A stretch of DNA of 64,000 nt from Thermoplasmatota archaeon (GCA_029762535.1 JARVGK010000002.1:73603-137602); one strand, 5' to 3'; positions 3,671 to 28,200 are shown, numbered from the stretch's first letter. The notes: generated by a model from the letters alone, not told the origin. Numbers and translations are program-made.

Positions 3671-3837
3671 CTTTTACCCCCCCTAAAGGATGAATTTGGG
3701 TCGAACGAAGTGCAACGAGTGGACCACATGGCCGAGATGTAATAGACACGATCGATGGCTGATATTATTCCCCGCCACACAGAAGGAATACACAGCATAG
3801 CGCGAATGATGTGAACGATCAATTATCAGAGACATGT

Positions 3838-8260: not shown

Positions 8261-8279
8261 ATCTTCTGGCAACCCGGTC

Positions 8280-8525
8280 CAAGGATGGAGTGGGTGCCAC
8301 CCTCGAAGATCCATGGCCGTGGGTTATCCGATCCGAACGGAGTGATCCATTAGGATAACGGGTGGGGACATGCGACGTTGCCGAAGGCAATGTCCCCCTG
8401 GGCGCAGCGGCCCGCAGGGGCGCGGAGGCGTGTCCGCAAGTTAGACAACCCGAGAGAAGCGAGAGCGCAGTGTGGTCGTGCACCGCATCCGAAGGCGAGG
8501 AGCGCAGAAGTTTCTAATTCTCCTG
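8280..8525. repeat. structured repeat element (island family)
   Basis: Carries GGTTATCCGATCCGAACGGAGTGATCCATTAGGATAACGG, the stem GGGGACAT...ATGTCCCC, and the conserved tail GCGAGAGCGCAGTGTGGTCG...GAAGTTT. Confidence 0.55.
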
Positions 8526-8559
8526 AACCACAGGGCTTGGCGTAGTTTTCAATAACCGG

Positions 8560-9942
8560 TTATGTTTCGTGAGGGGGAGTCTCATCCACCACTAACTCAT
8601 ACCAGACATTGTTCCCACCGCCCTTTTTCACAATCTTGCCTTCCCTGATAAGTTCATTCAGGTCACGGAGGGCGGTGCCTCTGTGAATAGAGAAATGATA
8701 TTCAATGTCTTCTGCCATTATTCTCTCTTTAGCTTCAATAAAGTCCATAATCCACTTCAATCGATTTCCTTTGCGTTTGTTCCGCATTTGTATCTGTTCT
8801 TTGTCCGTTCTGTGCCCGATTTCCTTCGGTTCAGCTTCGGATTTGCTTCGGATGTCACGATGGAAGACGGCACTGAAAAAAGAACCAATCTCAAAATCGA
8901 TTCCGAGATCGTACTCTTTCATCGATTTTCTCATCCTTTTAATGCCGGAGCCAGCTTTTTCCACCAGACCAAGTCTGTGAACCATGTCAGTTAAGAGAGG
9001 GTTTCTCTGAGCACTCCGTTTCCCCAGGTCTTCTTCCGGAAACAACAGCTTTCCCGGGTTCACTATTTCCACCCGCTCGGGGCTGATGTGTACCTGGATG
9101 TTCGAGGAATAGAGATAATCCCTGTGTATCATTGCGTTTATGATGGCCTCCCGCAGGGCATCTTTCGGAAGCTCCAGCTTCGCGGTATGTTTCAGGCCGT
9201 CGATGATTATGGCAGTGTTCAGCTTTGACAGAAGATAATTGTTGGCGTCGTTCAGATTGGTGGCGAAGTCTACAGAGAATTCCTTCGAGTCTATGATATC
9301 GATCTGCTCTTTATCGGCATACAGGAAGCAGGCCACCGTCGCATTGGGGAAATGTGATTTTACGTCCTTGGAAAAGAACAGAACGCCGCAGTTGTTCAGC
9401 TTTCCATTGGTCAGCAGGTTCAGGTTGCTCAGAATATGCTCTTTCGACAGGTCGCCGTCCAGCCCTGCTTCCTTCCGGAATCTGGCAAACGCGTCTTCTG
9501 AGAAATCCCGGTCTTTGAAATCAATGGTGTTTCTCTCGAAGGAGATGAGGTTCTCCTTCTGGAACAGTTCCCTAATCTCGTCCCTGTTCAGCTACTGGGA
9601 ATTGGCGCCGTACCTCAGATAGAAGTGGCCGTTCACGGTGTAGGGCTTGTCCTTCCCTTCCGAGACGTATATCACCACCATATCTCTAACCTGCTCGATC
9701 CGGGCATTGAAGGCGGGGTTCATGTTCCTGGCGATGTCTTGGATCTTCGACCTGTCGGAATTGGTCAGCTTGTAGCCTTTTATATCACCGGTCCTATCCT
9801 CAACACCGATTATTATCTTACCGCCGGAGGAGTTGGCAAAAGCACAGATGTCCTTTTCGATGGTACTGCTCAGCGACTCCTTCAGCTCGATGGTGTAGCC
9901 CTCACCGGTTTTCACGACATCAACAAGTTCTTCGTAGTTCAT
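8560..9942 (-). CDS. AlbA_2 (Schlafen-like DNA-binding) + HATPase_c_4 protein, interrupted by one in-frame TAG at 9592-9594
   Basis: ORFs 9592..9942 (AlbA_2-type N-terminus) and 8560..9336 (HATPase_c_4-type C-terminus) are in the same frame (9594-9336 = 258 = 86x3). Manual read-through gives ...GANSQ*LNRDEIRELFQKENLIS... with no other disruption. Confidence 0.6.
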
Positions 9943-10076
9943 ATCTCAACCCCGAGTTGTTCTTCCATCATGATCTCGAACTGCCTTGAGATTAGCAACC
10001 CCTTCTTCTTGCAATGCTCTTTGTATTTGTCGTATAGATCGGAATCCACGCTCAAAGTGACGTTTCTTGACGGCAT
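9939..10076 (-). CDS. ribbon-helix-helix (CopG/Arc-like) small regulator, 45 aa
   Basis: Manual translation: MPSRNVTLSVDSDLYDKYKEHCKKKGLLISRQFEIMMEEQLGVEI. Its TGA overlaps the ATG of the downstream AlbA gene (ATGA). It lies below the 60-aa ORF-track cutoff. Confidence 0.6.
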   Translation of the reverse strand: MPSRNVTLSVDSDLYDKYKEHCKKKGLLISRQFEIMMEEQLGVEI

Positions 10077-10107
10077 GTTATCACATTCACAGGTAAATGT
10101 CTGCATT

Positions 10108-10120
10108 GTTATTTAAATGT
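10108..10120 (-). promoter_or_regulatory. putative archaeal TATA box for the RHH-AlbA operon
   Basis: Minus-strand ATTTAAATA about 35-40 nt upstream of the RHH ATG. Confidence 0.3.
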
Positions 10121-10304
10121 GTATGATCCGTAACCCACCCTCACTCCGGTTATTGAAAATTTAAATCGAGAGTTAGCGAGCCATTTAATGTGTGTTATGC
10201 CTGGTTGCGTAGCAACCGAGTATCTGTTTCTTCTGGTGTTTCGTTAAACGAAGCCAAGCCCGTTTCTGGTGGTTCAGGTTCCACGATTAAAAGGAGGGGA
10301 AAAT

Positions 10305-10480
10305 TAGGATTTTCGGATAACGGACGCGGCTAACCGAAGTTCGTGGGGAGAAGGTGCTTTAGCACCCGAAGCCTTAAAATGAGGTCGAGGCTTCGGTTCC
10401 GAAAATCATCCTGCCGCCGTAGTTTTTTCTTGCTCTGTTTTTATTCATCTTTTCGTTATCCGTCGTGGGGGGTGTTCCGG
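10305..10480. repeat. structured repeat element (island family)
   Basis: Begins TTCGGATAACGGACGCGG. Hairpin GAAGGTGCTTTAGCACCC. Ends with the conserved tail CCGTAGTTTTTTCTTGCTCTGTTTTTATTCATC...GTGGGGGGTGTTCCGG. Confidence 0.5.
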
Positions 10481-10662
10481 TATTCTCTATTCTGCTTGTT
10501 TTTTTCCAAAATGCCTCAATACTCGTATGCTTCATATAATCTCCCAGCGTCCTTCCTTTCGACCGCCCGTGCGTCTGAGCAAACCATCGGATTGCAGTTT
10601 TTGGATGTTTCGTTCTATTGATCGTTCAGTAACTCCTATAAGAGAAGCCAGTTCAGGAATTG

Positions 10663-11940
10663 TTATTGTGTCGTTCTTTTCGATCTCCTGCAATATCTTT
10701 CCTGACGTTTTTCCAACGCTTTCCCGACGCTTTCTCTGGCGATTCCTGTATATAAAAGCGGAATCGCGGTAGTGAATACCGGTCCATCCATATACTTTGG
10801 AACGCCGTCGGGCGTGTAATGAGGTAGATACTTCCCGATATTCATCATCCCGGATCCAATTTCTTCCACCCAGCTCAGTTGTGCAAAGAACTTTGCAATA
10901 ACGGGATTCTTGGAGAAGGGCACCACTTTTTCGGGGTCAAGGACTCCCTCGACCCTGTAGTTGCTTGCGTTAGTGGTTTCTACACGATCTTTGTAAATTA
11001 TCAATCGGGCTGGATGGGCGTTCATGTATTCGCGATGCACCAGAAAATTAGCAATAACTTCCCGGAATATCTTATCGCGTAGACTTATCCTAGCGTCTCC
11101 TTCCAGGTAAAATGGGTCTGGAAGATGTTTGGCAATAAAGGCCATGAGCCGGTCGTATGCTTCAATGAGATTGCAATCTATACGGTCGCGGTCGTCATAA
11201 TGGTCCATCTGAACCCGGCGAACCATGGCATCGATCTTGTAATGAGGTAAAACACTCCGTATGGTCTCGTCTTTTCCCAGTAGCAGGATGGCAGCAAGGG
11301 TATAGCCCTCATTCCCGGTTTCCTGATCCTTTCTGAAAAGCCCGGCCTTGAGCAACAGCTGCTCATCGTCCAATTCTCTCCACGGATGATTCGGTCCACG
11401 GGTTAATATGAGATTACGAAGCCTGGGCAGCATGTCCAAACGCAAATCGTCAAGAGTTGTGGCAGAATAAATTATGTTCTCGGTGTATGTCGCCCGCTTC
11501 CGGTTACTAATCTCCGCGATCCGGTGGGGCTGGGTCACACGGAAATCGCCATCATTGCTTCGGTCGAAGACAACACCGTTGGTTTTATGCACCTAGGAAC
11601 TAGCAGGCACTGAAATATGCATGATCTTCTTTCCATCAAGAACATGTATAACGGGATGGAGGATGAACGGCGGATCCAGCTTTTGAGTATTATTGGAAAG
11701 ATTGACCATATCTGTTTTCATCTTATCGATGGATTGCGGATCGATTCCCAATACCCTTCCTTGATCATCAACTCCGAGAAGAATGTCTCCTCCGTCCCGG
11801 TTCAGCATTGCACATATTGTTTCGAATAAACTCGTGGGAAGAGATTTTCTTGCTTCCTTGTATTCTACCCGGATACCCTCGCCCATTGCAAGCAGATGTT
11901 TAAGGCGAATTTGCATCGGGTCACTTTGCATTTTTCTCAT
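10663..11940 (-). CDS. AlbA_2 + HATPase_c_4 protein (paralog), interrupted by an in-frame TAG at 11593-11595 that is immediately followed by GTG
   Basis: ORF 11593..11940 ends ...HISVPASS. It is followed by TAG, then in frame by GTG CAT AAA (VHKTNGVVFDRS...), which continues ORF 10663..11592. Confidence 0.6.
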
Positions 11941-12070
11941 CCTCTTTCATCTGTTCTTCCATCATGATCTCGAACTGTCTTGATATGAGCCAACCTTTCC
12001 TTTTACAGTAATCTCTGTATTTATTATAGAGATTTTCATCGAACCTTAAAGTAACGTTCTTTGAAGGCAT
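11921..12070 (-). CDS. ribbon-helix-helix small regulator, 49 aa (paralog)
   Basis: MPSKNVTLRFDENLYNKYRDYCKRKGWLISRQFEIMMEEQMKEDEKNAK. Overlaps the start of AlbA gene 2 by 20 nt. Confidence 0.55.
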   Translation of the reverse strand: MPSKNVTLRFDENLYNKYRDYCKRKGWLISRQFEIMMEEQMKEDEKNAK

Positions 12071-12101
12071 TTTAATCACTCACTGCACATACTTACAAAT
12101 G

Positions 12102-12112
12102 CATATAAATGC
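12102..12112 (-). promoter_or_regulatory. putative TATA box for the second RHH-AlbA operon
   Basis: Minus-strand TTTATAT about 30 nt upstream of the RHH ATG. Confidence 0.3.
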
Positions 12113-12139
12113 ATCATTTTTGTTATATGACACCCCCCC

Positions 12140-12445
12140 CACGCCCGTTGAGCAAGAAAAATTTGGGTGAGCGGAGCGAACCATTTAACCGGTGTTATAC
12201 TGGGTTGCGAAGCAATCTGGCACATGTCGTTATTCTCTTTTCGTGTGGGTTAAACGAAGGCGGCAGGAATAGATGATTTTCGCTTGTCTGGCCAATGCCG
12301 GGAGACGAAAAATTTCATTTAACGGACGCGACTATGCGAAGTTGCGTAGCGAAGCGGAGCAATTTGGGTCGAGCGAAGTGCAACGAGCGAGCCGTATAGT
12401 CGCGAGTTATCCGATCCGAGCTATGCGAGGATGAGCATCTTTGAT
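12140..12445. repeat. structured repeat elements (two units)
   Basis: 12150-12200 carries AAATTTGGGTGAGCGGAGCGAACC. 12290-12440 carries TTTAACGGACGCGACTATGCGAAGT...AATTTGGGTCGAGCGAAGTGCAACGAGCGAGCCGTATAGTCGCGAGTTATCCG. About 100 nt are near-identical to the 13185-13290 copy. Confidence 0.65.
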
Positions 12446-12458
12446 GCGAACGTCGGGT

Positions 12459-12881
12459 TCAGTGGTTTTTATTAGCTATATTAAAGAGTTCTTTCGTCGA
12501 GAATCTCTTTAATTTGTCCTGTCTATCAAAATCCTTATCTTCAGTCCATATCCCACTTGCCTTAACCGCCAAACCTAAAGCTAGAAAGGGCGTATCTTTA
12601 ATATCGATATCTTTCATGATTTCTTCAGCGAGTTCAAGATGATCTATGAATACATCCGATGGAATCAATTCGATTCTCTCGAGAATTGATAATAATATGA
12701 TGTCAAATTCTCTATCGGTTAACTTTGATTTTTCGATTAGGTAATGTCGATATTTTTCTATCTCTGTTATTACGTAATCTGGAGCAATAAAATTGAACTC
12801 CTCATTGAAGATGATCTTTCTTGTTTGTGAATCTTTGATCAATCCAGCCATGATTCTATTTGAATCTATGACCATCTTCAT
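12459..12881 (-). CDS. PIN-domain protein (VapC-like toxin)
   Basis: 140 aa. Begins MKMVIDSNRIMAG, with the first PIN Asp in the D-S-N context, plus later acidic residues. Overlaps the antitoxin gene by 4 nt. Confidence 0.6.
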   Translation of the reverse strand: MKMVIDSNRIMAGLIKDSQTRKIIFNEEFNFIAPDYVITEIEKYRHYLIEKSKLTDREFDIILLSILERIELIPSDVFIDHLELAEEIMKDIDIKDTPFLALGLAVKASGIWTEDKDFDRQDKLKRFSTKELFNIANKNH

Positions 12882-13111
12882 GCGGATTGCTTCCTTTTGT
12901 AATGTTTGTAGATGCCTTCTTTGACCTTTTCATCGAGAGCCATGACTTCTTCTTCAGTCAGTTCGCTCTCTTGAGTCAAAGAGTCAAGCAATGCCAACTT
13001 CTTTGCATAATCGGATATTGCCCTTCTAGCAATCTCGCTCCATCTGATCTCGCTGTGTTGTTTCATGATCACATGAATATCTGAAGGTACCGATAGGGTT
13101 ATGTTGGGCAT
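12878..13111 (-). CDS. antitoxin-like small protein (partner of PIN toxin)
   Basis: 77 aa, immediately upstream of and overlapping the PIN gene. The N-terminus MPNITLSVPSDIHVIMKQ is beta-strand like. Confidence 0.5.
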   Translation of the reverse strand: MPNITLSVPSDIHVIMKQHSEIRWSEIARRAISDYAKKLALLDSLTQESELTEEEVMALDEKVKEGIYKHYKRKQSA

Positions 13112-13184
13112 ATGATTACCACACAGGCATATGTGATATCACATATTTATTAATTGCCGTAACCACTGAACCCGATGTCGGATA

Positions 13185-13345
13185 ACGGACGCGACTATGC
13201 GAAGTTGCGTAGCGAAGCGGAGCAATTTGGGTCGAGCGAAGTGCAACGAGCGAGCCGTATGAGCGCGAGTTAAGTTCCCCGAGCCGAAGTTATCCGTAAG
13301 GATAACGTAGGCGAGAGCGCAGCGTGGTCCGGAGTTATCGAAGAT
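13185..13345. repeat. structured repeat element
   Basis: GGATAACGGACGCGACTATGCGAAGT...AATTTGGGTCGAGCG...CCGTATGAGCGCGAGTTAAGT. Followed by GAAGTTATCCGTAAGGATAACG and the tail GGCGAGAGCGCAGCGTGGTCCGGAGTTATCGAAGATAACG. Confidence 0.65.
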
Positions 13346-13370
13346 AACGACGGAAGTTGACCAGGATCAA

Positions 13371-13541
13371 TTAAGAAAACAATATCAAATATACAATGAA
13401 TATCAGTATTATACTAAGGAGAATATAAAAGGGAATACTCTTGCCTTTTTTTGCTAAATAGATTAATAACCCTATAATAGCAAGGATAAATGAAAGAAGA
13501 CAACATCCCGGAATTAATAAAAAATATGTTGGCATTCCCAT
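13371..13541 (-). CDS. small hydrophobic protein, 56 aa, two predicted TM segments
   Basis: Manual translation: MGMPTYFLLIPGCCLLSFILAIIGLLIYLAKKGKSIPFYILLSIILIFIVYLILFS. GGAG lies 8 nt upstream of the ATG. It sits in an AT-rich slot between two repeat elements. Confidence 0.35.
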   Translation of the reverse strand: MGMPTYFLLIPGCCLLSFILAIIGLLIYLAKKGKSIPFYILLSIILIFIVYLILFS

Positions 13542-13571
13542 TAATATTCTCCTGTAAAAATGCTGGTCAAT

Positions 13572-13740
13572 TGAACTTAACGGACGCGACTATGCGAAGT
13601 TTGCGAACGTAGTGAGCAAATTTGGGTGAGGGGCGGGCCGAGCCCCGAACCGCATAGTGGCGTGTTATTCGCCCCGAGCCGTAGGCGAGAGCGCAGCGTG
13701 GTCCGAAGTTATCCGAAGGATAACGAAGGAAGTTGAGGGG
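13572..13740. repeat. structured repeat element
   Basis: CTTAACGGACGCGACTATGCGAAGT...AAATTTGGGTGAGGGGCGGGCCGAGCCCCGAACCGCATAGTGGCGTGTTAT. The tail is GGCGAGAGCGCAGCGTGGTCCGAAGTTATCCGAAGGATAACGAAGGAAGTTGA. Confidence 0.65.
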
Positions 13741-13742
13741 GT

Positions 13743-14141
13743 CTAATGCCCGGATAAGAATTCGGAAGATTGAATGATCCTCACGCTATCATATTGCTTG
13801 ATCTTCAGTAAATGATTATCTCCCGAAATGATATATTCAGCCTTTCCTAAAATTGCTGTTTCCAAGACCATGTTATCCTTTGGATCATCTTCGATGACAT
13901 ATAGAGAATCTGTTATGAAAACGAGATCAGACATCAAGATCAAACTTTGAATGAAAGCATGGATCTTATCATCCGGGACATGGAACTTTTTTCGAAGAAC
14001 CATCTCAGTTTCTGAAAGAATCTGTTCGGAGGTGACAGATCTTATTTTTCCTGACTTGCATCTTGTCAATAATGACCTTTCATTCCCATTCCAGAAAAAG
14101 CCAGAGATGAGAATGTTCGAATCAAGGACTATCCGGACCAA
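13743..14141 (-). CDS. PIN-domain protein (VapC-like toxin)
   Basis: 132 aa. MVRIVLDSNILISG is a classic PIN N-terminus. Ends at TAG. Confidence 0.6.
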   Translation of the reverse strand: MVRIVLDSNILISGFFWNGNERSLLTRCKSGKIRSVTSEQILSETEMVLRKKFHVPDDKIHAFIQSLILMSDLVFITDSLYVIEDDPKDNMVLETAILGKAEYIISGDNHLLKIKQYDSVRIIQSSEFLSGH

Positions 14142-14144
14142 AGA

Positions 14145-14429
14145 TCAATTCTCCTTGGATCTGATTTCCTTTATTGCTTTAAGTACATCTGATTTCTTTA
14201 ACATCTTCTCCTTGGCGAAATCACTTCCCCAATGGAGAAGATTTTGGAAATCCTCATCGGTGGGGATGTCGATCTTTTTCAGGACTATCGTTTCGTTCTC
14301 TCCATACATGGCAAAGAACTCACCGGGTTTGAATCCGAGGAGTTCGCGAAGGTCTTTCGGTATCACGATCTGCCCTTTGGAGGAGAGCCTTGTGATGGTT
14401 ACTTCGGACATGGTAATAAGTAAGACCAT
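14145..14429 (-). CDS. AbrB/MazE/SpoVT-family antitoxin
   Basis: 94 aa. The swapped-hairpin motif is SSKGQIVIPKDLRELLGFKPGE. Directly upstream of the PIN gene. Confidence 0.6.
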   Translation of the reverse strand: MVLLITMSEVTITRLSSKGQIVIPKDLRELLGFKPGEFFAMYGENETIVLKKIDIPTDEDFQNLLHWGSDFAKEKMLKKSDVLKAIKEIRSKEN

Positions 14430-14469
14430 CTTACTATTTCATTTTTTCGGGTACTTGTAGACGATCACA

Positions 14470-14715
14470 TTAAACCCCCGAAATTGCGAATAACGTCCTG
14501 GGGATATGGGAAGTTGGCCGAAGGCCAATTTGGGTGAAGGGTCTGCAAGACCCGTAACCTCATATCCCCATGTTATCTTCCCCGAGCGATAGCGAGAGTG
14601 CAACGGGGTCGAGGCACGAAGTGCCGAAGAAGTTTGAAACCCTGCCGTAAATTCCGTTGTTGCCGTAGTTTTTTCTTACTCTATTCATCGTTCACGTTCT
14701 CCGTGGGGGTGTTCC
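14470..14715. repeat. structured repeat element
   Basis: Stem TCCTGGGGATATGGGAAGT...CCTCATATCCCCATGTTAT. Apex CCAATTTGGGTGAAGGGTCTGCAAGACCCGTAACC. Conserved tail ...CCGTAGTTTTTTCTTACTCTATTCATCGTTCACGTTCTCCGTGGGGGTGTTCCG. Confidence 0.6.
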
Positions 14716-14720
14716 GTTTA

Positions 14721-17318: not shown

Positions 17319-17319
17319 G

Positions 17320-19326: not shown

Positions 19327-21803
19327 TTCTTTTCCTCCTTATTATTCGAAATTAAATTCCAGTTTACGCTTCCACAATTACATCTTACGCCACTTTGTTT
19401 CATTCCATCTGCTGTAATTTTCAATATACCACCACAACTATGACATGAAAAGAGATAATATAAATCTTGAAATGCCTCTTTTATAGGTCGAAAGTCTTTA
19501 TCACTAAAGTTTATCCAATTATTAAAATGAACGTTTGCATTAATTCCCCATTGTTCAGCATATGTGCGTTTATAAATGCTAGAACGCATTGAATCTAATT
19601 CTTCAAATTTTGCCGTCTTTTCTGATTTTTCCCAGGAAACTGATGATTTTTTAGCCTTTTTAATTAAGTCCTTATATCCATCCATTAATGGTATTGTAAA
19701 ATCACCAAGATCTAGCTGGCCGTTTAATTTGTATCGTACTCGTATCTGTAATGAATCACACACTAGCCCAAAATACTCTTCCAAACCGCGTCTTAATCTC
19801 GAAGCAGCAGAAGGAACATCGTTTCTTGTCAAATCTTCTTCAATTTTACTCCAGAGGTCTGCTTGAAGATTTACTTGAGGCCCTGTATCAACTTTCCAAT
19901 TATAGAATTCAACCATGCAACTCTTATTATCAACAACTCCTTCACTTCTCATTTGATTAGCCCATGTCTTATCATGGGTTGTGATTAAAAATTGTCTGTT
20001 TGGGAAATTTGATGCAAGCACGCGACAAATATCTCGCCTATGATTCGAATCCACAGACATTATTACATCATCTAAGATAATGAGGTCAATAAGACCTTCT
20101 GCCAAACGTTCAGATAGAGCCAAATATAAACAAAGCCCCATACTATCTTGATGACCTTCACTGTGGAGGGCTTGTGGAGAAAAAGCCCCTCGGCCATAAA
20201 AATCAACTTCAAATTTTAATGCCGCCCCATCTGGTGAAATAGTCGCGGAAAAATCTTTTTCGTCTGAACCATGTAATTCTTTATATAATTGCACAAAGCG
20301 ATCATTTACATCTTTGTAAAGATTTCCCAATATAGTATCTCTGGAATATTCAAATGTATTTAACAATATCTCTGCTTTTTTATATGAGATACTTGCGTTT
20401 TTAAAATCATTTTTTGCTTTTTCAAGACCTTTTAAATTTTCTTCAAGGCGTGTTAATGTATCCCACGCAGTTTGTTCAGGGGTTATCGGTGGCGCTTTGG
20501 TTTTAACAATTTCTATTAGAGTTTGAAGATTTTGTTTAATTTCCTCAGAAATAAGCATGTGTTTTACTCTGTCGCTATCAAATTCGATCAATGGATATTT
20601 TTCGAGTGGATTAGCTAATGCTATGGATAACTGATTCAAATCTGACGAACATGTTTTCAATTGGATGCTCCATTCCTTTTCCTCAATTTTATTTAATACC
20701 TCAATTATTTTATTTATGCTTCCTCTTGTATTGTTCACACGCTTTGATATGGAATCGGACAAAGATGTAATTCTGTTTCTTTGTTGTGATATTTCTTCAA
20801 TATCAGTCAATTTTGAGGTAAGATATTCATCTAATTTACCGCTTGGCCACTGTGTATCACACAATGGGCAGTTACCCGTGTCATCGATCATAGATTTTCC
20901 AAGTTCAATTAATTGAAATCGATTGTATGTTTTCAATAATTTCGGATTCGATTTTATAGAGTTTAGAAGATTTCTAAGTTCTTTATCAAATTCAATGATT
21001 CCTTTTTGATTCTTTTCGTCAAAGGAATTATGAATATTTTGAATATCTTTTTCAAATATAGTAAGATTGACATGATTGTCGTTGATAATACTGGTAGGTG
21101 GCGTAAGGGCCTTTTTTAACGTATCTGAAGAAACCGAATTCAATTCATTACTTTTTAATGTTTTACGTAATTGATTTACGTAATCCAGTAGCATCTTTTC
21201 ATTAAATGATGTTGTTTGAATTGTTGCGTTAACCTCACCTTTTTTCTCATCTATTGCTTCTTCTTTTGTCTGCTTTTCTCTTTTAAAAGTATTTTCAATA
21301 TTTACAAATGCTTTTCTTATTATTTCAATGTCTGATATATTTAATAATGCTTGAATCTCCTGGGCACGTGTACTACCATCAGAGGTAATATATTTTAAAA
21401 TTTCTCGTCTTGTTAATACATGTTCTCCCCTCGATGCAAGGGATAAAATGGGTTCAAGATTAGGTAAATATTTTTCATCAGATACAACTAACTTAGTGGG
21501 TTGTGCCATATCTCTTTTTATTTCAATAGGAACATTAATTTTTGGAAATTGAATAACTGCACGTACAATAGCATCTTTTGGCTTGTGATCAATATGTGGG
21601 CCACATTCTTTCAATTTGATATTGCGAGTTCCCTCTCCCTTTAAACGAGAAATTCGACCTGTTAAGAGGAAATCAATGGCATCAACAACAGCACTTTTCC
21701 CTGAACCATTTGGCCCCCATATTACTATATTTTTTCCTTGGGGCGTTAGTTTTATATGGGTTATACCCCGCACATTTTCAATTTCAAGCTCAATCAGTTT
21801 CAA
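19323..21803 (-). CDS. SMC/RecF-like ABC ATPase with long coiled-coil insert and C-terminal Zn-ribbon
   Basis: 826 aa. Walker A GPNGSGKSAVVDAI. Signature-like SEGHQDSMGL. Walker B LIILDDV. H-loop TTHD. C-terminal CHSCGG...RCNCG. Confidence 0.65.
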   Translation of the reverse strand: MKLIELEIENVRGITHIKLTPQGKNIVIWGPNGSGKSAVVDAIDFLLTGRISRLKGEGTRNIKLKECGPHIDHKPKDAIVRAVIQFPKINVPIEIKRDMAQPTKLVVSDEKYLPNLEPILSLASRGEHVLTRREILKYITSDGSTRAQEIQALLNISDIEIIRKAFVNIENTFKREKQTKEEAIDEKKGEVNATIQTTSFNEKMLLDYVNQLRKTLKSNELNSVSSDTLKKALTPPTSIINDNHVNLTIFEKDIQNIHNSFDEKNQKGIIEFDKELRNLLNSIKSNPKLLKTYNRFQLIELGKSMIDDTGNCPLCDTQWPSGKLDEYLTSKLTDIEEISQQRNRITSLSDSISKRVNNTRGSINKIIEVLNKIEEKEWSIQLKTCSSDLNQLSIALANPLEKYPLIEFDSDRVKHMLISEEIKQNLQTLIEIVKTKAPPITPEQTAWDTLTRLEENLKGLEKAKNDFKNASISYKKAEILLNTFEYSRDTILGNLYKDVNDRFVQLYKELHGSDEKDFSATISPDGAALKFEVDFYGRGAFSPQALHSEGHQDSMGLCLYLALSERLAEGLIDLIILDDVIMSVDSNHRRDICRVLASNFPNRQFLITTHDKTWANQMRSEGVVDNKSCMVEFYNWKVDTGPQVNLQADLWSKIEEDLTRNDVPSAASRLRRGLEEYFGLVCDSLQIRVRYKLNGQLDLGDFTIPLMDGYKDLIKKAKKSSVSWEKSEKTAKFEELDSMRSSIYKRTYAEQWGINANVHFNNWINFSDKDFRPIKEAFQDLYYLFSCHSCGGILKITADGMKQSGVRCNCGSVNWNLISNNKEEKK

Positions 21804-21993
21804 GTTCTTCCCTCGAAGTAGTTTTTAATACGCTGATAATTTTTTTAGTATCAGCTAATTGTCCTGTTGAATTAAGTTCACGAAGCTTATTGATGGTCAC
21901 CACATTAAATTCATCTTTATCATTGAGGTCTGAAAACATTTTATCAAGTATGTGGTCAATCAATGAAGATGTTTGTATTGTTTCGGGAGTCAT
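21790..21993 (-). CDS. small 67-aa protein, function unknown (operon partner)
   Basis: ORF MTPETIQTSSLIDHILDKMF.... Its ATG overlaps the RHH TGA (ATGA), and its 3' end overlaps the ATPase start by 14 nt. Confidence 0.45.
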   Translation of the reverse strand: MTPETIQTSSLIDHILDKMFSDLNDKDEFNVVTINKLRELNSTGQLADTKKIISVLKTTSREELETD

Positions 21994-22130
21994 TTATTTA
22001 CCTCCTTCATCTGTTCTTCCATCATAATTTCAAATTGTCGGGATATGAGCCACCCCTTCTTCTTACAGAATCCTTTGTATCGTTCGTAAAGGTCTTCATC
22101 AACACTGAGGGTTACGTTCTTTGAAGGCAT
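21990..22130 (-). CDS. ribbon-helix-helix small regulator, 46 aa (third paralog)
   Basis: MPSKNVTLSVDEDLYERYKGFCKKKGWLISRQFEIMMEEQMKEVNK. Confidence 0.55.
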   Translation of the reverse strand: MPSKNVTLSVDEDLYERYKGFCKKKGWLISRQFEIMMEEQMKEVNK

Positions 22131-22161
22131 GATAATCACATTCATCTCCAAATGTCAGCAA

Positions 22162-22174
22162 ATGTATATAAGTA
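22162..22174 (-). promoter_or_regulatory. putative TATA box for the RHH-ATPase-Mod-Res operon
   Basis: Minus-strand CTTATATAC about 35 nt upstream of the RHH ATG. Confidence 0.3.
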
Positions 22175-22189
22175 TTCGCTTTTTCCGTT

Positions 22190-22620
22190 TCTATTCGTTG
22201 TTCGGAACACCCCCCACGTCCATAGAGTAAGAAAAAATTTGGGTATTCGCTTTGCGAATCCGTTTAACATCCGTTAGCCGAGAGTCTGGACTTGTCCAGA
22301 TTTTGGTGGTTCTTTCCGTCTTGTTTCCGTTAAACGAAGGCAACAACGTCATGAATTTACGGTCTCCTTTTCATAGGCATGGTTTCAAATTGAAGATAAC
22401 GGAACGCGGGTATGCGAAGTGAATATGTTTCCAGTGCGGTTCCTCAGCAGAGTATTCATTTGGGAGAGCGAGTGCAACGAAGCGAACCGCATACCCGCGT
22501 GTTAAGTCCTCCGAATGAAGTTATCCTACGGATAACGAAATGAGAATGCAATGAGATCGAGCACCGCAGACCGTTAGGTTGAGGAGCGGAGAAGTTGGCC
22601 AGCCAAGAACGTTGTTCGGG
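22190..22620. repeat. structured repeat elements (two units)
   Basis: 22200-22330: AAAATTTGGGTATTCGCTTTGCGAATCCGTTTAACA. 22390-22620: GATAACGGAACGCGGGTATGCGAAGT...CATTTGGGAGAGCGAGTGCAACGAAGCGAACCGCATACCCGCGTGTTAAGT. Followed by GAAGTTATCCTACGGATAACGAAATG and the tail ...GAGCGGAGAAGTTGG. Confidence 0.6.
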
Positions 22621-22832
22621 ACACGGTGGATTTTTTACTACCAATCTACCCCACAAGGGTTATAGGTCGAGGGTGTCTTGCTTGTAAGTCGAGGGGTTTG
22701 AAATACTTGTCAAACCAAGATTTGACCATGGCGAGGTTTACTATCTTTTGGGTTATCGTTCTGACCATTATTATTTTAGAGTTGCAATATGATTTGTTCA
22801 AATTTTCTGATGAATTCGTAAGTAAAAGAGAT

Positions 22833-25800
22833 TCAATCCTCCTCCTTTATTGGTTTGATGGTTCGAAGGTTCAAAGAAAAAGATCGCCCCTCGATATTTT
22901 CTTCTGGGATATCATCATATCTCGTTATAATAACCTTATCATCAACTTTATCACTGAGGTTTTCCACATTCCATAACTCCCATCGATCCCCACCTTCTTC
23001 CTGACTTAAAAGGAATTCCACATATTCCCTAGAGGTTATGTTTACAATTTTGGAAGAACCTAAATGTGCCTTGACTTCGATCTTAATTTGTTCTCTATCA
23101 CGAATAGCAATGATATCATAGCCTGGATTCTGTTTGGGCATTTGTTCAACTTCGAATCCTTTTAATTCTAACTCTCTTTGAGCAAATGATCTTCCTTTAG
23201 TTTCTATCATCTCATTGTCCTCATATGATGTTCTGTTCCCAGATTTGCCACCACCACCGCCACCAGATGAACCCTTAGTTTCCTCATCAACTCTCTCCTC
23301 TGTATTAACTTCATATTCAGAGTCGTCATCCTTTAATTGAATACCTTCATCTTCCTCTGAATCTGGAGTTCTTTCTTCTCTATTTTGCTCATCAAGTAAT
23401 TTTTCCTTATTGTCTTCTTCACTTTTTGTCGGTTGTTTCGGCTTTTTAGGAAGCATACCAGGAAATGGCTTCTTCGATGGTGGAGTTGACTTTTGTTGAT
23501 CAGAGTCTTTGTGTTTTACATAGTCGTTATTGAATTCTAAAAAAGAGATATCGATCTGTTCATCTGATATTCCGCTGGAAGTCAATTTTTCTCGTCTTTC
23601 GTAATCATTATTACACCTTAAAAGATTTTCATAAGTGTCGGCTTCTCCTGGCACTCCTAAATAAAACGATATTGATCGAGATATTGTAGTTACACTTTGT
23701 TTATCTTCACTTATGAATATTGTTGAACCAACAATGTAAAAATCTCCGGATATTTCGGTTTCATACTTATCAAGTAGTATCAATTTTTTTCGAATTTCCT
23801 TTTTTACTTTAACTTTGATATTTTTAATTCTTTGAATCAATTTCTGATGATCTGATAGTTTATCCGATCTTATCACATATATGTATGAAAGACTGTCAAT
23901 TAGATTTTTCGCCAATTCCGGTTTCAATTGTTTCTCATCATCATTTGTCTCAATTATTTCTTCCTTCAATATATTCTTATCACTAATTTGACGTTTTCCA
24001 AAATACTTACTTACAAACTGGTGATATCTTCTAGATATATTGAAAAAATAAACATCATTATTAAAAGCATTTTTAATCTCCACATCATCATTAATGAATA
24101 TCTCTTTGCTACTTATAATTTGAAATATATTGCTTCTTTCACATAAAAGGGGACAATCATGAAGCAATAATTCAGGAAGTGCTACCATCAAACTATTTGT
24201 TGTATCTAAACATCTTTCGTAGATTTTCATTATTTTGAATCTTAATTCTCGATTATCATTTATATCTTCATCTGAAATGAATTTTATTAATAGGTTGGAT
24301 AATATTTCTTTCCATTCTTCAGGTTTTAATTCATCAATATTTGTTCTAATAATTTTCACTTTATTCTTTAACCAATGAAAAATATTATCCTTTGAACTCT
24401 CAAAAAGATTTAAATTGATAACTGGTAATAAATACCCTATTTCAAAATTATCTTTTTCATTTAATATCCAACATTCTTCCAATGGTTTAGGATCTAGATA
24501 ATGTGTAAGAGGAGGTATGAACTTTGTTTTTAAATCAAACCACCATGATGCATCTGAGTTTCCATAATATAATGCTCTGTTGTATGGTCGATAGTGTACT
24601 CGAATATTCATATATTCTTCATAGTATTCCCAATTGTTTGCTATTAACTTTAATAAGGATATTTTAGATTTTTCAGGCAATTCGTCTAAATTTATTTTAT
24701 CAAATCTTTTATTATAACTGATTTTTTCAACATTATTATAATCTTCATTCACATGTATCGGAATTTCTTCTGTAGAAATTAATCGGGGAAATGTTTTACA
24801 CCCTAACCATCTTAAGATATCTTGATCAATTATTTTCTCTAAGCTATTGTTTTCTTTTTGTACCCATTGTATATCGTAATGATTGCGAAATAATGAGTTC
24901 AAATCACTATTGCCCCATTCTTTTCCCATATATCCAAATTTGGCTTTTATCCATATAACATCTTTTTTCCCCTTCCTTCTAGATGGAATTGGACAATTTC
25001 TAATTCCTACGGGTGCATTTTCTTCTTTCATCAACCATTTATTTTTATAGATATATCGATAATATATTGAGGGATTATCTTTTTGATTCTTGTTCCTACT
25101 ATCCCAATAATTCTCAATAGCTTTAATTAAAGCTTTTTCTGTAACATTTTCAATTCTCTCTACACCCAATGTTGCTAGGATTTTGTTGACTGAATGATGG
25201 TTTTCCAATAACTTATCCCCAAACCATTCATCAACAAACACTATCGGCATCCATTTAGGTACGAGATTTTTCTTGTCTTGATCAGATTTCCAAGTGATGA
25301 TTTGACCCTTTGAATTGGCAATTGATATCAGATGATTACCAACAGGAAGTATTGGTAGACTTTTTATAATCTCAATTTTCTCCTCTTCATTGATTTCATC
25401 TGAATCATGATTAGCCCAATTAGAGAGCCATTTCCAACAAGTCCAAATCCAATCAATATTTCCTGTATTTTTAGATGACTCTTCATTGATTACACTTAGT
25501 AACGTATTATCATCAATCAAACTGCAGTTCATGGATTTTAAAACGTTATATGAAACTTCATTCTCCTCATAACTGAAATGTAACAAGTTGTCACTAATAT
25601 TTGATGTATTTAAAATTTTACGGGCGTTTGTCAAATCACATGTTGTTGATATAAGCTTTATATCAGAGAAATTTAATAATTTTTCTCCATTAATATTGCC
25701 GAATTTTAAAGTGTTCTTTGAATAATCAACAATCACATCCCAAAATAATTTGGTGATTTCATGACTGTTTCTCTCCTCAAATGGTGATAACAATGTAATA

Positions 25801-26930
25801 TTATTTGCTGGATCACCTTTTAAATATTGCTCATCCACAAATTCAACTAATGTATGAACGAGATTATCCATTATCCATTTATTTAGATTATTATTCTCTA
25901 TCGGAAGAATTTCCGTTCTATCACTTTTTACAAAAAAATCCGCATGAAGAAGTATTGGAACTGGGGAGTAGTGTTTTGTCGGATAATACACATGGATTTT
26001 TGGGTAATCGGTCATAGATCTGATTTTACCATCAATGACATATGTACCAACCAGGAAATTAATTCCATCTTCGATAATTCTCGCATTATCTTCTTTATCA
26101 AGGTTAGATAAGAAATAAGGTGGAATCATATCACCCGACATCGTTTTTCGTTTGATTTTCCATTTCGTTACATCTTCAACGCCATCAATGGTATCATTGA
26201 TTACATTTTCCTTATCTATTGTTATTTTCCTTAAGGTTTTACTTGAACCAACAGCATCAATTATCTCCAACATTCTAATATGATGAAATGTTAGGAGAGT
26301 ATAATTTTTCAATGAAATTTTATCAAATAATACTTCGTTATCAATTTCCTCAAGATAATTCAATTTAACTACAGTTGACCAATCCGATTGAGAGGTTAGA
26401 TATTGATCATTCAAAGAAATATCATCCCAGGATATCGAAAAAGGGATCCATTGATATGGTACATCATCATCTGGAAAACCATTATTTTGTAACCATTGTT
26501 TCGCCTTTTCAAATGAGAATTCTACTCCCTCTCCTCCTATGCTAAATATTTGTGGATTATTTGAAATCTCATAAACAGCTTTGAATCCTAATCCCTTTCT
26601 TCCGATGGTCCCAGATTTTTTAATTGAATAATCCGTTCCACACAAAGATTCAATAGCATCTGGCTGTAATCCTACTCCCTTATCCAAGATATAGACCGAT
26701 TTATCGGTCAACAAAACCTTTACCTCTTTAGATTCTGCATCATCACAATTTTGGAATAATTCGTAAAACCATCGTCCAGTGTGGTCAGAAGTTACTCTTT
26801 CTGCACTTCTTGTGTCTCTGATGATTCGTTTGGGATCTCCTTTATATGTCCCTTGTAATTTTTGGTTGAATAAATCAATTGCCTTTTTAATAGGTTTCAA
26901 TATACTATCACCATCGACATACACAATCAT
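22833..26930 (-). CDS. 1,365-aa protein: N-terminal sacsin/Hsp90-like GHKL ATPase domain, long middle region, Gly-rich linker, C-terminal DUF3883-like (PD-(D/E)xK-fold) domain
   Basis: N-terminus FYELFQNCDDAESKEVKVLL and GRKGLGFKAVYEISNNPQIFS match the sacsin-repeat ATP-binding signature. C-terminus is GSSGGGGGGKSGN followed by NPGYDIIAIRDREQIKIEVKAH (the EVK motif of DUF3883). Very AT-rich. Confidence 0.6.
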   Translation of the reverse strand: MIVYVDGDSILKPIKKAIDLFNQKLQGTYKGDPKRIIRDTRSAERVTSDHTGRWFYELFQNCDDAESKEVKVLLTDKSVYILDKGVGLQPDAIESLCGTDYSIKKSGTIGRKGLGFKAVYEISNNPQIFSIGGEGVEFSFEKAKQWLQNNGFPDDDVPYQWIPFSISWDDISLNDQYLTSQSDWSTVVKLNYLEEIDNEVLFDKISLKNYTLLTFHHIRMLEIIDAVGSSKTLRKITIDKENVINDTIDGVEDVTKWKIKRKTMSGDMIPPYFLSNLDKEDNARIIEDGINFLVGTYVIDGKIRSMTDYPKIHVYYPTKHYSPVPILLHADFFVKSDRTEILPIENNNLNKWIMDNLVHTLVEFVDEQYLKGDPANNITLLSPFEERNSHEITKLFWDVIVDYSKNTLKFGNINGEKLLNFSDIKLISTTCDLTNARKILNTSNISDNLLHFSYEENEVSYNVLKSMNCSLIDDNTLLSVINEESSKNTGNIDWIWTCWKWLSNWANHDSDEINEEEKIEIIKSLPILPVGNHLISIANSKGQIITWKSDQDKKNLVPKWMPIVFVDEWFGDKLLENHHSVNKILATLGVERIENVTEKALIKAIENYWDSRNKNQKDNPSIYYRYIYKNKWLMKEENAPVGIRNCPIPSRRKGKKDVIWIKAKFGYMGKEWGNSDLNSLFRNHYDIQWVQKENNSLEKIIDQDILRWLGCKTFPRLISTEEIPIHVNEDYNNVEKISYNKRFDKINLDELPEKSKISLLKLIANNWEYYEEYMNIRVHYRPYNRALYYGNSDASWWFDLKTKFIPPLTHYLDPKPLEECWILNEKDNFEIGYLLPVINLNLFESSKDNIFHWLKNKVKIIRTNIDELKPEEWKEILSNLLIKFISDEDINDNRELRFKIMKIYERCLDTTNSLMVALPELLLHDCPLLCERSNIFQIISSKEIFINDDVEIKNAFNNDVYFFNISRRYHQFVSKYFGKRQISDKNILKEEIIETNDDEKQLKPELAKNLIDSLSYIYVIRSDKLSDHQKLIQRIKNIKVKVKKEIRKKLILLDKYETEISGDFYIVGSTIFISEDKQSVTTISRSISFYLGVPGEADTYENLLRCNNDYERREKLTSSGISDEQIDISFLEFNNDYVKHKDSDQQKSTPPSKKPFPGMLPKKPKQPTKSEEDNKEKLLDEQNREERTPDSEEDEGIQLKDDDSEYEVNTEERVDEETKGSSGGGGGGKSGNRTSYEDNEMIETKGRSFAQRELELKGFEVEQMPKQNPGYDIIAIRDREQIKIEVKAHLGSSKIVNITSREYVEFLLSQEEGGDRWELWNVENLSDKVDDKVIITRYDDIPEENIEGRSFSLNLRTIKPIKEED

Positions 26931-27252
26931 ACTTTAATCGTGGACCTTTGTTTATTTTTGCGGTCATAAACATCATTTTCCGAACTTGTTCTATGCTTTT
27001 ACCATATTTATAAGCTTCTTTGCTTTCACCCAAGCTCCATGTTATTACACCCTCAACCTATTCTTTCCAAAAAATCCACCGTGTCTTTTTACCCCGAAGT
27101 CTGGCTGGCCAATTGGACTTAACTCCTATCATGCGATGTGTTGGATCGGATACTTTCACTTTCACATGGTTATTGCGAAGATTTATTAACCCGGGATCCT
27201 CCTTTGGTTTCATGGGATCATACCCGGACATGGATAAGGAGATGGTGAATAT

Positions 27253-28053
27253 ATGAATGTTTCCGAAAAGGGCAGGGAGAGAATGCTGGCTCGGCTGGAT
27301 GAGGAGATGAGGCTTCGGAAGTATTCGCCTGCGACAATGAAGCAGTATCTCGGATTCATCAAGAGGTTCCTTGATTCCGGATCCGATCCCCGGAGCTTCA
27401 TGCTGGGTCTCTCCGACAGATGCTCACGATCCACGGTCCGATCCGCTTACTTCTCCCTGACGTTCTTCTATCGATATGTCCTTCATCAACCCTTCGACGA
27501 GGGGATCCCCCTCGCAAAGCGCGGTGGGAGGCTTCCAACGGTACTCAATCGCGAAGAGGTCCATTCCATGATCGATAGCGCCGTGAACGTTAAGCACAAG
27601 GTCCTGCTGATGCTTCTGTATTATGGTGGCCTAAGGCTCAGCGAGGCTCGATCCCTGCGCTGGGAGGGTCTCGATTTCGAACGGGGGATCATCCATATAA
27701 AGCACGGGAAGGGGGATCGGGATCGGGTCGTCTTTCTCCATTCCAGGCTTGCAGAGGCGCTTTCCGTATTGGGGGTTAAAAGCGAAGGTTGCGTATTGAT
27801 CTCTTCGGTCTCCAAAGGAGCCTATACACCAAGGGGTATCCAGTTGACTGTCGCGGATATCGCTAAACGGGCGGGGATAAAAAAGAGGGTCAGTCCCCAT
27901 ACGCTTCGGCACAGCTTCGCGACCCATCTCCTTGAGGCCGGGGCTGACGTCAGGCACATACAGAAGCTTCTGGGGCACAGGAACCTGTCGACAACACAAG
28001 TATACACCCACATCGCCGACCGGGAAATGATCAGGATAGTTTCCCTGCTCTGA
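27253..28053 (+). CDS. tyrosine-type site-specific recombinase (Xer/XerA-like)
   Basis: 266 aa. R..., HTLRHSFATHLLEAGADVRHIQKLLGH, and the catalytic Y in STTQVYTHI. No IntI-type extra domain. GC is like the host. Confidence 0.75.
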   Translation: MNVSEKGRERMLARLDEEMRLRKYSPATMKQYLGFIKRFLDSGSDPRSFMLGLSDRCSRSTVRSAYFSLTFFYRYVLHQPFDEGIPLAKRGGRLPTVLNREEVHSMIDSAVNVKHKVLLMLLYYGGLRLSEARSLRWEGLDFERGIIHIKHGKGDRDRVVFLHSRLAEALSVLGVKSEGCVLISSVSKGAYTPRGIQLTVADIAKRAGIKKRVSPHTLRHSFATHLLEAGADVRHIQKLLGHRNLSTTQVYTHIADREMIRIVSLL

Positions 28054-28200
28054 CATGCTAAAACAATGACCAGCTCCAATACGGTACATAGCCTTAGCTA
28101 GGACGCGGGTCCTTTCTTCACCGCCCCTTTCACAGGGCTCCGTTCAGATGCCGCTCCGGGTCGCATAGATGAGTGTTATTTGTTATCCAGTTGTACCTCC

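Follow-up and report, generated by a model that had tools for sequence, protein, structure and literature searches.

A probable integron-type gene-cassette platform headed by a recombinase without the IntI-specific domain in a Thermoplasmatota archaeon

A 64-kb stretch of archaeal DNA, read on one strand and hereafter called the window, carries an array of defence and toxin-antitoxin genes that is punctuated by a single family of structured repeats and headed by a divergently transcribed tyrosine recombinase. From the evidence of sequence, we consider it probable that this locus is a chromosomal integron-type gene-cassette platform with a distinct recombinase, one that lacks the domain specific to integron integrases (IntI). 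The integron-like interpretation was first advanced in an original prediction made for this DNA, and is supported here by the structure of the repeats, by a chain of complementary flanks that links successive repeats and terminates at an attI-like site, by breakpoints in close relatives, and by recurrence of the same architecture in other archaea. For host sequence, the analysis was restricted to the window. A 137.6-kb NCBI contig of a metagenome-assembled genome (MAG) encodes proteins 100% identical to the window's glutaminyl-tRNA synthetase and recombinase, and an independent Logan assembly (a 35-kb contig) shows the same arrangement, in agreement with the NCBI contig. The host is a Thermoplasmatota archaeon.

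All credible genes between 8560 and 26930 lie on the minus strand and the recombinase (27253-28053) lies on the plus strand, as the original prediction had it. The adjacent recombinase is transcribed away from the array, as it is in a Vibrio superintegron (L173) that was fetched as a positive control for the comparison of layout and flanks. Equally sound was the claim that one repeat family follows each minus-strand module on its 3' side. A covariance model built from the seven full copies in the window (A, B and D-H, starting at about 4241, 8351, 12315, 13178, 13573, 14488 and 22395) scores these at 79-114 bits and everything else in the 64 kb at 17 bits or less. One-armed or half copies lie at about 3686, 10157, 10313, 12157 and 22233. 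The model found no copies at 28-64 kb of the window, and no Rfam family matches the repeat region. The attC-like cores quoted in the original prediction were recovered within a few bases of their places (GTTAAGT at 13269 and 22501, ATTTAAC at 12317 and ACTTAAC at 13575). A generic scan for AAC...GTT hairpins was too noisy for finding sites and was replaced by the covariance model.

On the plus strand, the repeat unit of about 90 nt reads xxxxxTAAC-GGA-CGCGACTATGCG-AAGTT-(hairpin)-AATTTGGGT-(hairpin)-CGTATAGTCGCG-A-GTTAyyyyy, and its core is a 12-bp covarying stem with two inner hairpins on either side of AATTTGGG. Read on the cassette-sense strand, each site (attC) consists of a 9-nt R'' box (five cassette-specific bases plus TAAC), 1 nt, a 12-nt L'' box, the two inner hairpins beside an unpaired CCCAAAT(T), the L' box, a spacer of 3-5 nt and R' (GTTA). 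As expected of integron sites, the window attCs form imperfect inverted repeats in which an L stem lies inside R''/R' boxes that end in AAC/GTT. The stem sequence varies among copies in ways that preserve pairing (for example CGCGACTATGCG, GGGGATATGGG and CGCGGGTATGCG), and in attC G the stem GGGGATATGGG/CTCATATCCCC is a compensated variant of the family stem. Folding of the repeats had been proposed as a check of the integron-like interpretation, and the pairing bears it out. Across 19 copies from six loci, 93% of cells pair, compared with 31-37% when partner columns are slid, and compensatory changes occur in nine of the 12 L-stem pairs. The covariation score of the same alignment is 0.379, against 0.03-0.07 slid and 0.108 shuffled, and the TAAC/GTTA pairs are near-invariant. 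Upstream of R'' runs a conserved purine-rich tail of 60-100 nt, often with a small GTTATCC-N3-4-GGATAAC hairpin, the stem of which is the same duplex as a common R box (GGATAAC/GTTATCC). Such hairpins lie beside attCs at 4347-4364, 13289-13306, 13334-13348, 13708-13724 and 22520-22536, and also at 8323-8359. These hairpins may provide additional binding sites for the recombinase, or they may be scars left by empty junctions.

The repeats bound the cassettes in the manner of attC sites, and this is most directly visible in their flanks. Reverse-complementing the 5 nt that follow GTTA in one repeat gives the 5 nt that precede TAAC in the next. Complementarity is 5/5 at five consecutive junctions (D-E, E-F, F-G, G-H and H-attI), for which the chance expectation is roughly (1/1024)^5. 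Flanks that are not neighbours match at 0-4 of 5 positions, with the exception of D-C, which match because C and E share a flank (TCGGA). The chain ends at a lone AATTGGACT-TAAC at 27111-27123 that pairs with the flank of attC H and lies 130 nt upstream of the recombinase start. This attI-like site has the flank GGACT, complementary to that of attC H, and a conserved GGTTATTGCGAAG motif at 27168-27180. Its crossover point is predicted to fall within TAAC at 27120-27123, and homologous sites precede the family recombinases of three other loci (L085, L087 and L169).

In the Vibrio control, sites with an identical TAAC/GTTA core are arranged likewise with respect to the integrase, and five junctions match at 5/5. 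Flank chains occur in other archaeal loci as well: L171 has five junctions at 5/5 and an attI junction at 4/5, L087 has three and L169 two, and in L001 and L002 the chain is visible by eye. The flank matrices of the window, L171, L087 and L169 fit a crossover inside R' that produces hybrid attCs, as in the Vibrio control. That attI, next to the integrase, would be the insertion point is indicated on sequence grounds by the end of the chain, by the divergence between strains and by the ends of contigs. This reading makes the minus strand the cassette-sense strand, and the cassette encoding a TmtA-like protein would be the most recently inserted. The opposite assignment, with the plus strand as the cassette-sense strand, the integrase leftward and the genes antisense, was rejected because the chain ends beside the recombinase, relatives break at the TAAC side and the polarity in Vibrio is identical.

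Close relatives vary precisely where the chain ends. A relative with a 94%-identical recombinase, represented by four assemblies (L081-L084), has this gene in the same chromosomal place, beside the same 365-aa, YjeF and 856-aa neighbours. Leftwards from the recombinase, two of the assemblies (L081 and L084) match the window almost exactly as far as the attI TAAC and are unrelated to it beyond that point, and in the other two (L082 and L083) the contigs end on the attI TAAC. The first cassette differs between close relatives, with the breakpoint on the predicted crossover, and this is the repeat-bounded variation that the original prediction had proposed to look for. Further, the scaffold of L087 has a gap at CTAAC/N/CTAAC, and the contigs of L089 and L172 break off before their own recombinase gene, at a distance of 130-220 nt upstream.

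The same arrangement recurs in other archaea. Recombinases that are 53-59% identical to that of the window head minus-strand arrays with the same attC family in L087, L171, L169, L001 and L002, and every one of the 19 covariance-model hits is on the strand opposite to the recombinase and upstream of it. The flank chains in these loci are perfect or near-perfect and end at attI. L171 has six attC sites and cassette genes for GNAT, NUDIX and GmrSD proteins; L087 has three sites and a half copy, with upstream cassette-like genes including a glyoxalase, a methyltransferase and an MFS transporter; and L169 has two sites and TIR and McrBC genes. L001 and L002 have one site each, with two open reading frames (ORFs) and a single ORF, respectively, all without annotation. 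In L085, a homologous attI adjoins TIR, ThsB and SNF2-NOV_C defence genes. No cassette gene shared across phyla was found.

Wider scans added little to this set. A metagenome scan with the family alignment yielded one in-family locus (L089); the remaining hits were overwhelmingly generic Xer proteins, since RHSFATHLL and YYGGLRLSE, the motifs that had been back-translated, occur in all Xer/IntI proteins. A pattern scan of IMG/VR gave 47 hits, which is about the estimated chance level, with one real attC among them (L193). There, a viral-classed contig (IMGVR_UViG_3300001335_000566) holds one cassette at 1207-4216, with an 845-aa ORF, bounded by GTTATACGC...GCGTATAAC. Its attC is nearly identical to site 1 of L171 and no recombinase lies within 9 kb; the cassette may have been inserted at a secondary site or may be carried on a mobile element.

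In practice, integrons are defined by an integrase with an extra domain, which is considered necessary for gripping the bases that flip out of folded attC hairpins. The window recombinase comprises the two domains typical of Xer proteins, and the catalytic residues (R, K, HxxR, H and Y) do not vary within its family. It lacks the IntI-specific domain around patch III, as had been predicted. Against VchIntIA (2a3v), query residues 167-195 face IntI4 residues 174-246 (29 aa versus 73 aa), and in a multiple alignment the insertion of about 45 aa is present only in IntIA, IntI1 and IntI2. The IntI sequences for comparison were obtained with a VchIntIA fragment as query; a tblastn search of plasmids with the window recombinase did not return IntI1 at E <= 1e-15. 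Among NCBIfam models, the recombinase reaches 187 bits on IntI (TIGR02249), where the match comes in two pieces and the cutoff is 265, and 184.7 bits on XerA_Arch (NF040815), below the equivalog cutoff of 220. Its best solved-structure match is the XerA of P. abyssi (128.9 bits). Of 120 homologues among the matches listed, 119 are 257-283 aa long and one is 300 aa; the named sources among these matches are Thermoplasmatota, Woesearchaeota, Nanoarchaeota and Altiarchaeales MAGs.

A neighbour-joining tree recovers the window family, a 33-42%-identical archaeal group and IntIA/IntI1/IntI2 as monophyletic, each at 100/100. The phylogenetic placement that had been suggested as a further check puts the window recombinase in a separate clade, outside both IntI and the XerA-with-dif group. 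We read the 33-42%-identical group as true XerA. Dif-like palindromes (for example CGTATAAGATATATTATACG in L003) lie just upstream of its members L003, L007, L035/L036 and L066, about 60-120 nt from the recombinase start. The combination of palindrome and gene in these relatives is consistent with xerA beside dif in Methanosarcinales and DPANN MAGs. No dif-like palindrome of the type with a 6-nt spacer was found upstream of the window recombinase or of the genes of its clade; the attI motif stands there instead. The original prediction had named a housekeeping XerA with a nearby dif site as the finding that would overturn it, and the score below the XerA cutoff, the separate clade and the missing palindrome all point away from that case. 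Its description of the platform as possibly Xer-driven holds in so far as the recombinase is Xer-related, and has to be amended in that the driver is better seen as a distinct Xer/IntI-related clade and not as XerA itself.

Two observations on recombinase-related sequences stand apart from the array. A 22-nt stretch that resembles an attC arm, 3' of the recombinase at 28157-28178, was rejected as a site, being poorly alignable with attC and without a partner arm. It is 73% like the attC 3' arm, belongs to a conserved backbone common to the sister strain, and is probably a chance match or a very old relic. Among the matches listed, Terriglobia MAG chromosomes (OZ252023.1 and CBDHGK010000041.1; L010-L031 and L037-L049) carry a 40%-identical recombinase in 13 to about 23 copies per genome, all of which match the window query at the same identity. 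This looks like a proliferated tyrosine-recombinase mobile element in Acidobacteria.

If the locus is an integron-type platform, its workings would be as follows. The recombinase gene would be transcribed away from the attI-like site, and cassettes would be inserted there successively, so that they stack on the opposite strand. Each cassette would carry its own attC at its 3' end, and in the circular cassette the attC would have R'' and R' paired. Strand exchange inside R' (GTTA) would leave the next five bases with the downstream cassette, which would account for the pairing between the outer flank of one site and the inner flank of the next. The most likely catalyst is the recombinase beside attI, a member of an archaeal clade separate from XerA and IntI. 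The platform appears to recombine and to be active still. We infer that the substrate is a folded single strand, with one particular strand exchanged, and that the recombinase alone is sufficient.

Several observations weigh against this reading. The L stems of the window attCs carry no single-base bulges, and consequently there is no obvious canonical strand-choice marker, only an asymmetric loop of 1 x 3-5 nt. A hairpin substrate is not guaranteed for the window recombinase, because it lacks the domain that grips the extrahelical base in canonical IntI. The window attI shows no significant folding, and the attI of five relatives folds as a TAAC...GTTA hairpin. No attC was found in the 10 kb upstream in L085, and L170 has an attI and no array. 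The tree is a crude neighbour-joining one with three IntI sequences, and its deep order has low values (family with XerA 34/100, family with IntI 19/100). Finally, decay is evident in the distal third of the array. There is damage in copies B, C and E, genes are split in two cassettes, the flank chain is interrupted at A and at B, and the array encloses an ABC operon on the plus strand.

Because of this distal decay, part of the platform may be fossil. Extended to the whole, the argument becomes that an integron-type assembly took place in the past and that the recombinase or the sites are now inactive in this lineage, for which the half copies and the split AlbA_2/HATPase_c_4 genes of cassettes 6 and 7 would be further signs. 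We regard this as unlikely. The five junctions nearest the recombinase are perfect, the stems there are intact and so are the catalytic residues. The 94%-identical strain already has a different first cassette and assemblies break at attI, which argues for recent turnover.

A platform driven by its own recombinase must also be weighed against what is known of archaeal cassettes. Ghaly et al. 2022 (PMC9668308) described attC arrays in archaeal MAGs, including Thermoplasmatota and Nanoarchaeota, with cargo enriched for toxin-antitoxin and restriction-modification genes. They counted 539 attC against 6 IntI, with IntIs defined by the IntI-specific domain, and most arrays were without a detectable IntI. 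By analogy, the window might hold a cassette cluster without an integrase of its own (a cluster of attC sites lacking an integrase, CALIN), served in trans by a canonical IntI, with the neighbouring recombinase a bystander Xer. That the recombinase scores nearly equally on the XerA and IntI models, and that only 64 kb of the genome are visible, would suit such a view, which we nonetheless think quite improbable. The order of recombinase, attI and array, and their polarity, recur in at least six loci with recombinases only 53-59% identical; attI directly upstream of the gene is conserved among loci; and the clade stands apart from the dif-bearing XerA group. Moreover, window-type attCs lack the AAxTC/xTTC L-box pattern, and the archaeal set tested with IntI1 lacks ATTTGGG.

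Very improbable, in our judgement, is that independent elements were stacked at a dif-like site by the host chromosome-dimer resolvase, in the manner of integrative mobile elements exploiting Xer (IMEX). The recombinase is indeed Xer-like in size and domains, and the use of a folded single-stranded CTX phage genome by XerCD offers a precedent. The cassettes, however, contain no replication, transfer or virion genes in Pfam scans, and the gene has no dif-type palindrome near it, unlike true XerA relatives, and its score falls short of the XerA cutoff. Woesearchaeota have both clades, which suggests separate roles for the window clade and XerA. Least credible of all is that the repeats are structured intergenic elements of a defence island (terminators, small-RNA genes, or the likes of miniature inverted-repeat transposable elements, MITEs, and repetitive extragenic palindromes, REPs) beside an incidental recombinase: structured units 3' of genes, conserved unpaired motifs (AATTTGGG and GAAGTT) and a conserved tail would suit it, yet it predicts neither the pairing of neighbouring flanks, nor a chain that ends by the recombinase, nor sister-strain homology that stops on a site; the other 36 kb of the window hold no copies; those present form one co-oriented array in which neighbouring flanks are inverted and no single copy is enclosed by direct repeats, unlike MITEs or REPs; and small-RNA genes unrelated to module boundaries, which the original prediction had named as a refutation, are made unlikely by the absence of an Rfam match and by the flank chain, which ties the repeats to those boundaries.

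The integron-type platform proposed here can be compared with systems already described. With the Vibrio superintegron (Vibrio cholerae repeats, VCRs, as attC, and IntIA) it shares a recombinase transcribed away from an adjacent attI, co-oriented cassettes on the other strand, imperfect-palindrome attCs with a TAAC...GTTA core, and a flank chain that ends at attI. As in bacterial chromosomal integrons generally, the attCs within the genome resemble one another, and the cargo is of toxin-antitoxin and defence type. It differs from these in an integrase that lacks the domain of about 45 aa and falls outside the IntI clade. Its attC has a 12-bp bulge-free L stem with an asymmetric loop in place of a symmetric unpaired spacer; the loop between the R and L boxes is 1 nt against 3-5 nt, with the longer side next to R', like the 5/6-nt spacers of the aadA7 attC. 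An unpaired CCCAAAT(T) between inner hairpins and a tail of 60-100 nt are further differences, as are an attI that in several relatives is itself a TAAC...GTTA hairpin and, in the window, cassettes of up to 4.6 and 7.8 kb. Indeed, the covariance model of window-type attCs does not detect VCRs or class 1/2 attCs.

Archaeal XerA is likewise a two-domain tyrosine recombinase of about 270-290 aa acting with dif; the window clade is separate from it, scores below the XerA cutoff, and is accompanied by attI and an array instead of a dif-like palindrome. XerCD integrates the folded single-stranded DNA of CTX phage, so that a recombinase without the IntI domain works on a hairpin site. This is a precedent for the exchange of one strand at a folded site without that domain. 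The CTX case differs in relying on a housekeeping heterodimer and a phage genome, with no dedicated recombinase and no promoter-proximal stacking of cassettes. The archaeal integrons of Ghaly et al. (PMC9668308) resemble the present case in their attC arrays, in similar cargo and in mostly having no IntI nearby. IntI1 recombines the attCs synthesised in that study, which follow the canonical bacterial pattern (xCTAAC-AAxTC-xTTCxAGC ... GCTGAAC-TCGGGC-GTTAGGy) and contain neither ATTTGGG nor CCCAAAT (the AATTTGGG motif). The domain-less recombinase clade was not linked to arrays there, and within the searchable library we found no paper that ties this clade to cassette arrays. Defence cargo in integrons has been reported (10.1101/2024.07.02.601719).

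We lean, by a little, towards the view that these loci represent a widespread and unrecognised class of archaeal integrons, with a domain-less integrase clade beside XerA and IntI and its own attC and attI architecture. The array architecture is observed in Thermoplasmatota and Nanoarchaeota MAGs, and family recombinases are also labelled Woesearchaeota and Altiarchaeales. Were this so, the extra domain would be dispensable for cassette recombination at hairpin sites, or a different substrate geometry would be used. The clade could then preserve what integron integrases were like ancestrally, or it could have arisen from Xer independently, and it could explain part of the shortage of integrases near archaeal cassette arrays. 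The locus has the architectural hallmarks of an integron, including the flank chain and the replacement of cassettes at attI, yet its recombinase is domain-less and its stems are bulge-free. If the recombinase is the catalyst, the standard definition used for detection misses a whole archaeal branch of platforms, the integron's problem of strand and site selection has an alternative solution, and the evolution from Xer resolvase to gene capture gains an intermediate or a parallel form. Further, archaeal defence systems (Tiamat, Lamassu-like plus type III restriction-modification, TIR/Thoeris-like, McrBC and GmrSD) would travel as cassettes. The findings are also consistent with cassette exchange across phyla, because the attC type is common to Thermoplasmatota and DPANN-type genomes and the GC content of cassettes is far below that of the chromosome.

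The cargo of the window array is mainly anti-virus defence (the TmtA of Tiamat, and an LmuB-like ATPase with type III restriction-modification) together with PIN toxin-antitoxin pairs (Table 1). Pfam and PADLOC searches back the modules listed in the original prediction: the giant GHKL protein, which at 1365 aa combines GHKL and NOV_C and matches TmtA in PADLOC; the ATPase with Mod and Res; the PIN toxins; the 56-aa peptide, for which Pfam gave no family match; and the AlbA_2/HATPase_c_4 pairs. Two toxin-antitoxin modules are present as described, one PIN toxin with a MazE-type partner and the other with a 77-aa partner that has no Pfam match. Small ORFs do accompany the AlbA_2/ATPase modules; the ribbon-helix-helix fold assigned to them has no Pfam support. 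The marked AT-richness noted earlier is also borne out: the flanks have a GC content of 52-60%, which drops to 40-51% between 8 and 15 kb and to 27-34% between 15 and 27 kb. The low GC of the cassettes indicates a foreign origin. An exact-sequence look-up of two cassette proteins found no second genomic context.

Table 1. Recombination sites, cassettes and recombinase of the window, from the distal end of the array to its head
Feature	Position	Strand	Description
Half attC	3686..3745	-	AATTTGGGTCGAACGAAGTGCAACGAG...; 16.9 bits; left of cupin gene 3838-4200
attC A	4241..4337	-	CAAC 4244-4247, GTTA 4328-4331; 87 bits; fold z -2.9
attC B	8351..8445	-	TAAC 8356-8359, GTTA 8440-8443; degenerate; 79 bits
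Cassette 7, paralogue of cassette 6	8446..10312	-	55-aa ORF 9939-10106; AlbA_2 9592-9942; HATPase_c_4 8560-9336
Half attC (cassette 7)	10157-10200		in leader of paralogous small-ORF module
attC C	10313..10345	-	surviving crossover-side arm only: TAAC-GGA-CGCGGCTAACCG-AAGTT
Cassette 6	10346..12314	-	52-aa ORF 11921-12079; AlbA_2 fragment 11593-11940; HATPase_c_4 fragment 10663-11592
Half attC (cassette 6)	12157-12200		in leader of paralogous small-ORF module
attC D	12315..12414	-	TAAC 12320-12323, GTTA 12406-12409; 114 bits
Cassette 5	12410..13177	-	putative antitoxin, 77 aa, 12878-13111; PIN_2 toxin 12459-12881
attC E	13178..13277	-	TAAC 13183-13186, GTTA 13269-13272
Cassette 4	13273..13572	-	56-aa peptide 13371-13541
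attC F	13573..13672	-	TAAC 13578-13581, GTTA 13664-13667; 107.5 bits
Cassette 3	13668..14485	-	MazE/AbrB-type antitoxin 14145-14429; PIN toxin 13743-14141 (Pfam)
attC G	14486..14580	-	TAAC 14491-14494, GTTA 14572-14575; 89 bits; fold z -3.1
Cassette 2	14579..22391	-	53-aa ORF 21990-22151; 67-aa ORF 21790-21993
Cassette 2, type III Res	14721-17318	-	Pfam, PADLOC
Cassette 2, type III Mod	17320-19326	-	Pfam, PADLOC
Cassette 2, ATPase, LmuB/SMC-like	19323-21803	-	Pfam, PADLOC
Half attC (cassette 2)	22233-22279		in leader of paralogous small-ORF module
attC H	22392..22509	-	TAAC 22397-22400, GTTA 22501-22504; 86 bits; fold z -3.3
Cassette 1	22505..27119	-	TmtA-like GHKL ATPase with NOV_C/DUF3883 domain 22833-26930; GC about 30%
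attI-like site	27111..27180	-	minus-strand read ...GATAGGA-G/TTAAGTCC-AATT
Tyrosine recombinase, 266 aa	27253..28053	+	candidate integrase; Pfam Phage_integrase and SAM_4

AlbA_2 and HATPase_c_4 are separate ORFs in both cassettes 6 and 7, abutting at 11592/11593 in one and divided by a 255-nt gap in the other, and are likely to be disrupted genes. A paralogous small ORF without a Pfam match, called ribbon-helix-helix in the original prediction, is common to three cassettes (9947-10085, 11941-12079 and 22001-22139). The leaders of these cassettes (10157-10260, 12119-12261 and 22194-22341) combine an attC 3' half with an A/T-rich TATA-like box, which suggests that the three carry their own promoter and derive from a common fused ancestor. 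Among the sites, attC E is 97% identical to attC D with one stem arm scrambled, and an R' remnant (GTTATCCGATCC) lies at 8323-8334, immediately before attC B.

Towards the left, the limits set in the original prediction have to be redrawn. The array does not start at 8261, given a full copy at 4241-4331 and a half copy at about 3686-3745 further left. Nor is the ABC operon a host boundary: it sits between repeats, and we place it inside the array because attC A and the half copy lie to its left. This plus-strand operon (5166-8260) encodes a BtuF-like binding protein, a FecCD permease and an ABC ATPase, and has a host-like GC of 54%. It is flanked by attC A (4241) and attC B (8351), in an orientation opposite to that of all cassettes, and could have come to lie there through a rearrangement, as an inverted large cassette or by a split of the array. 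The 3' flank of attC A (GTTAAAGGAA, 4328-4337) is complementary at 9/10 positions to the 5' flank of attC D (TTCATTTAAC, 12310-12323), with the inner five bases complementary at 4/5. It looks as if the stretch from A to D (about 8 kb, comprising the ABC operon and copies B and C) was once one unit or was inserted later. Further left, minus-strand genes at 351-4200 (two GNAT, a glyoxalase/bleomycin-resistance protein, DUF3795 and a cupin; GC 43-50%) are typical integron cargo. There are no intact sites among them, only the single half attC at about 3686, and they may be old fused cassettes of an array that runs off the left end of the window.

Elsewhere in the window, a second low-GC patch at 57000-59300 (41-48%) encodes an AriA/NsnB/OLD-like ABC ATPase (57886-59202) with a 152-aa ORF immediately downstream (57431-57889), and may be a small defence islet unrelated to the array. 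The glutaminyl-tRNA synthetase at 49198-50998 is of the bacterial/eukaryotic type and scores above the GlnS cutoff. A tRNA-Glu adjoins its gene and a tRNA-Gln lies about 1.4 kb away (noted at 52400-52475). Homologues of this synthetase, at 70-100% identity, are widespread among Thermoplasmatota MAGs.

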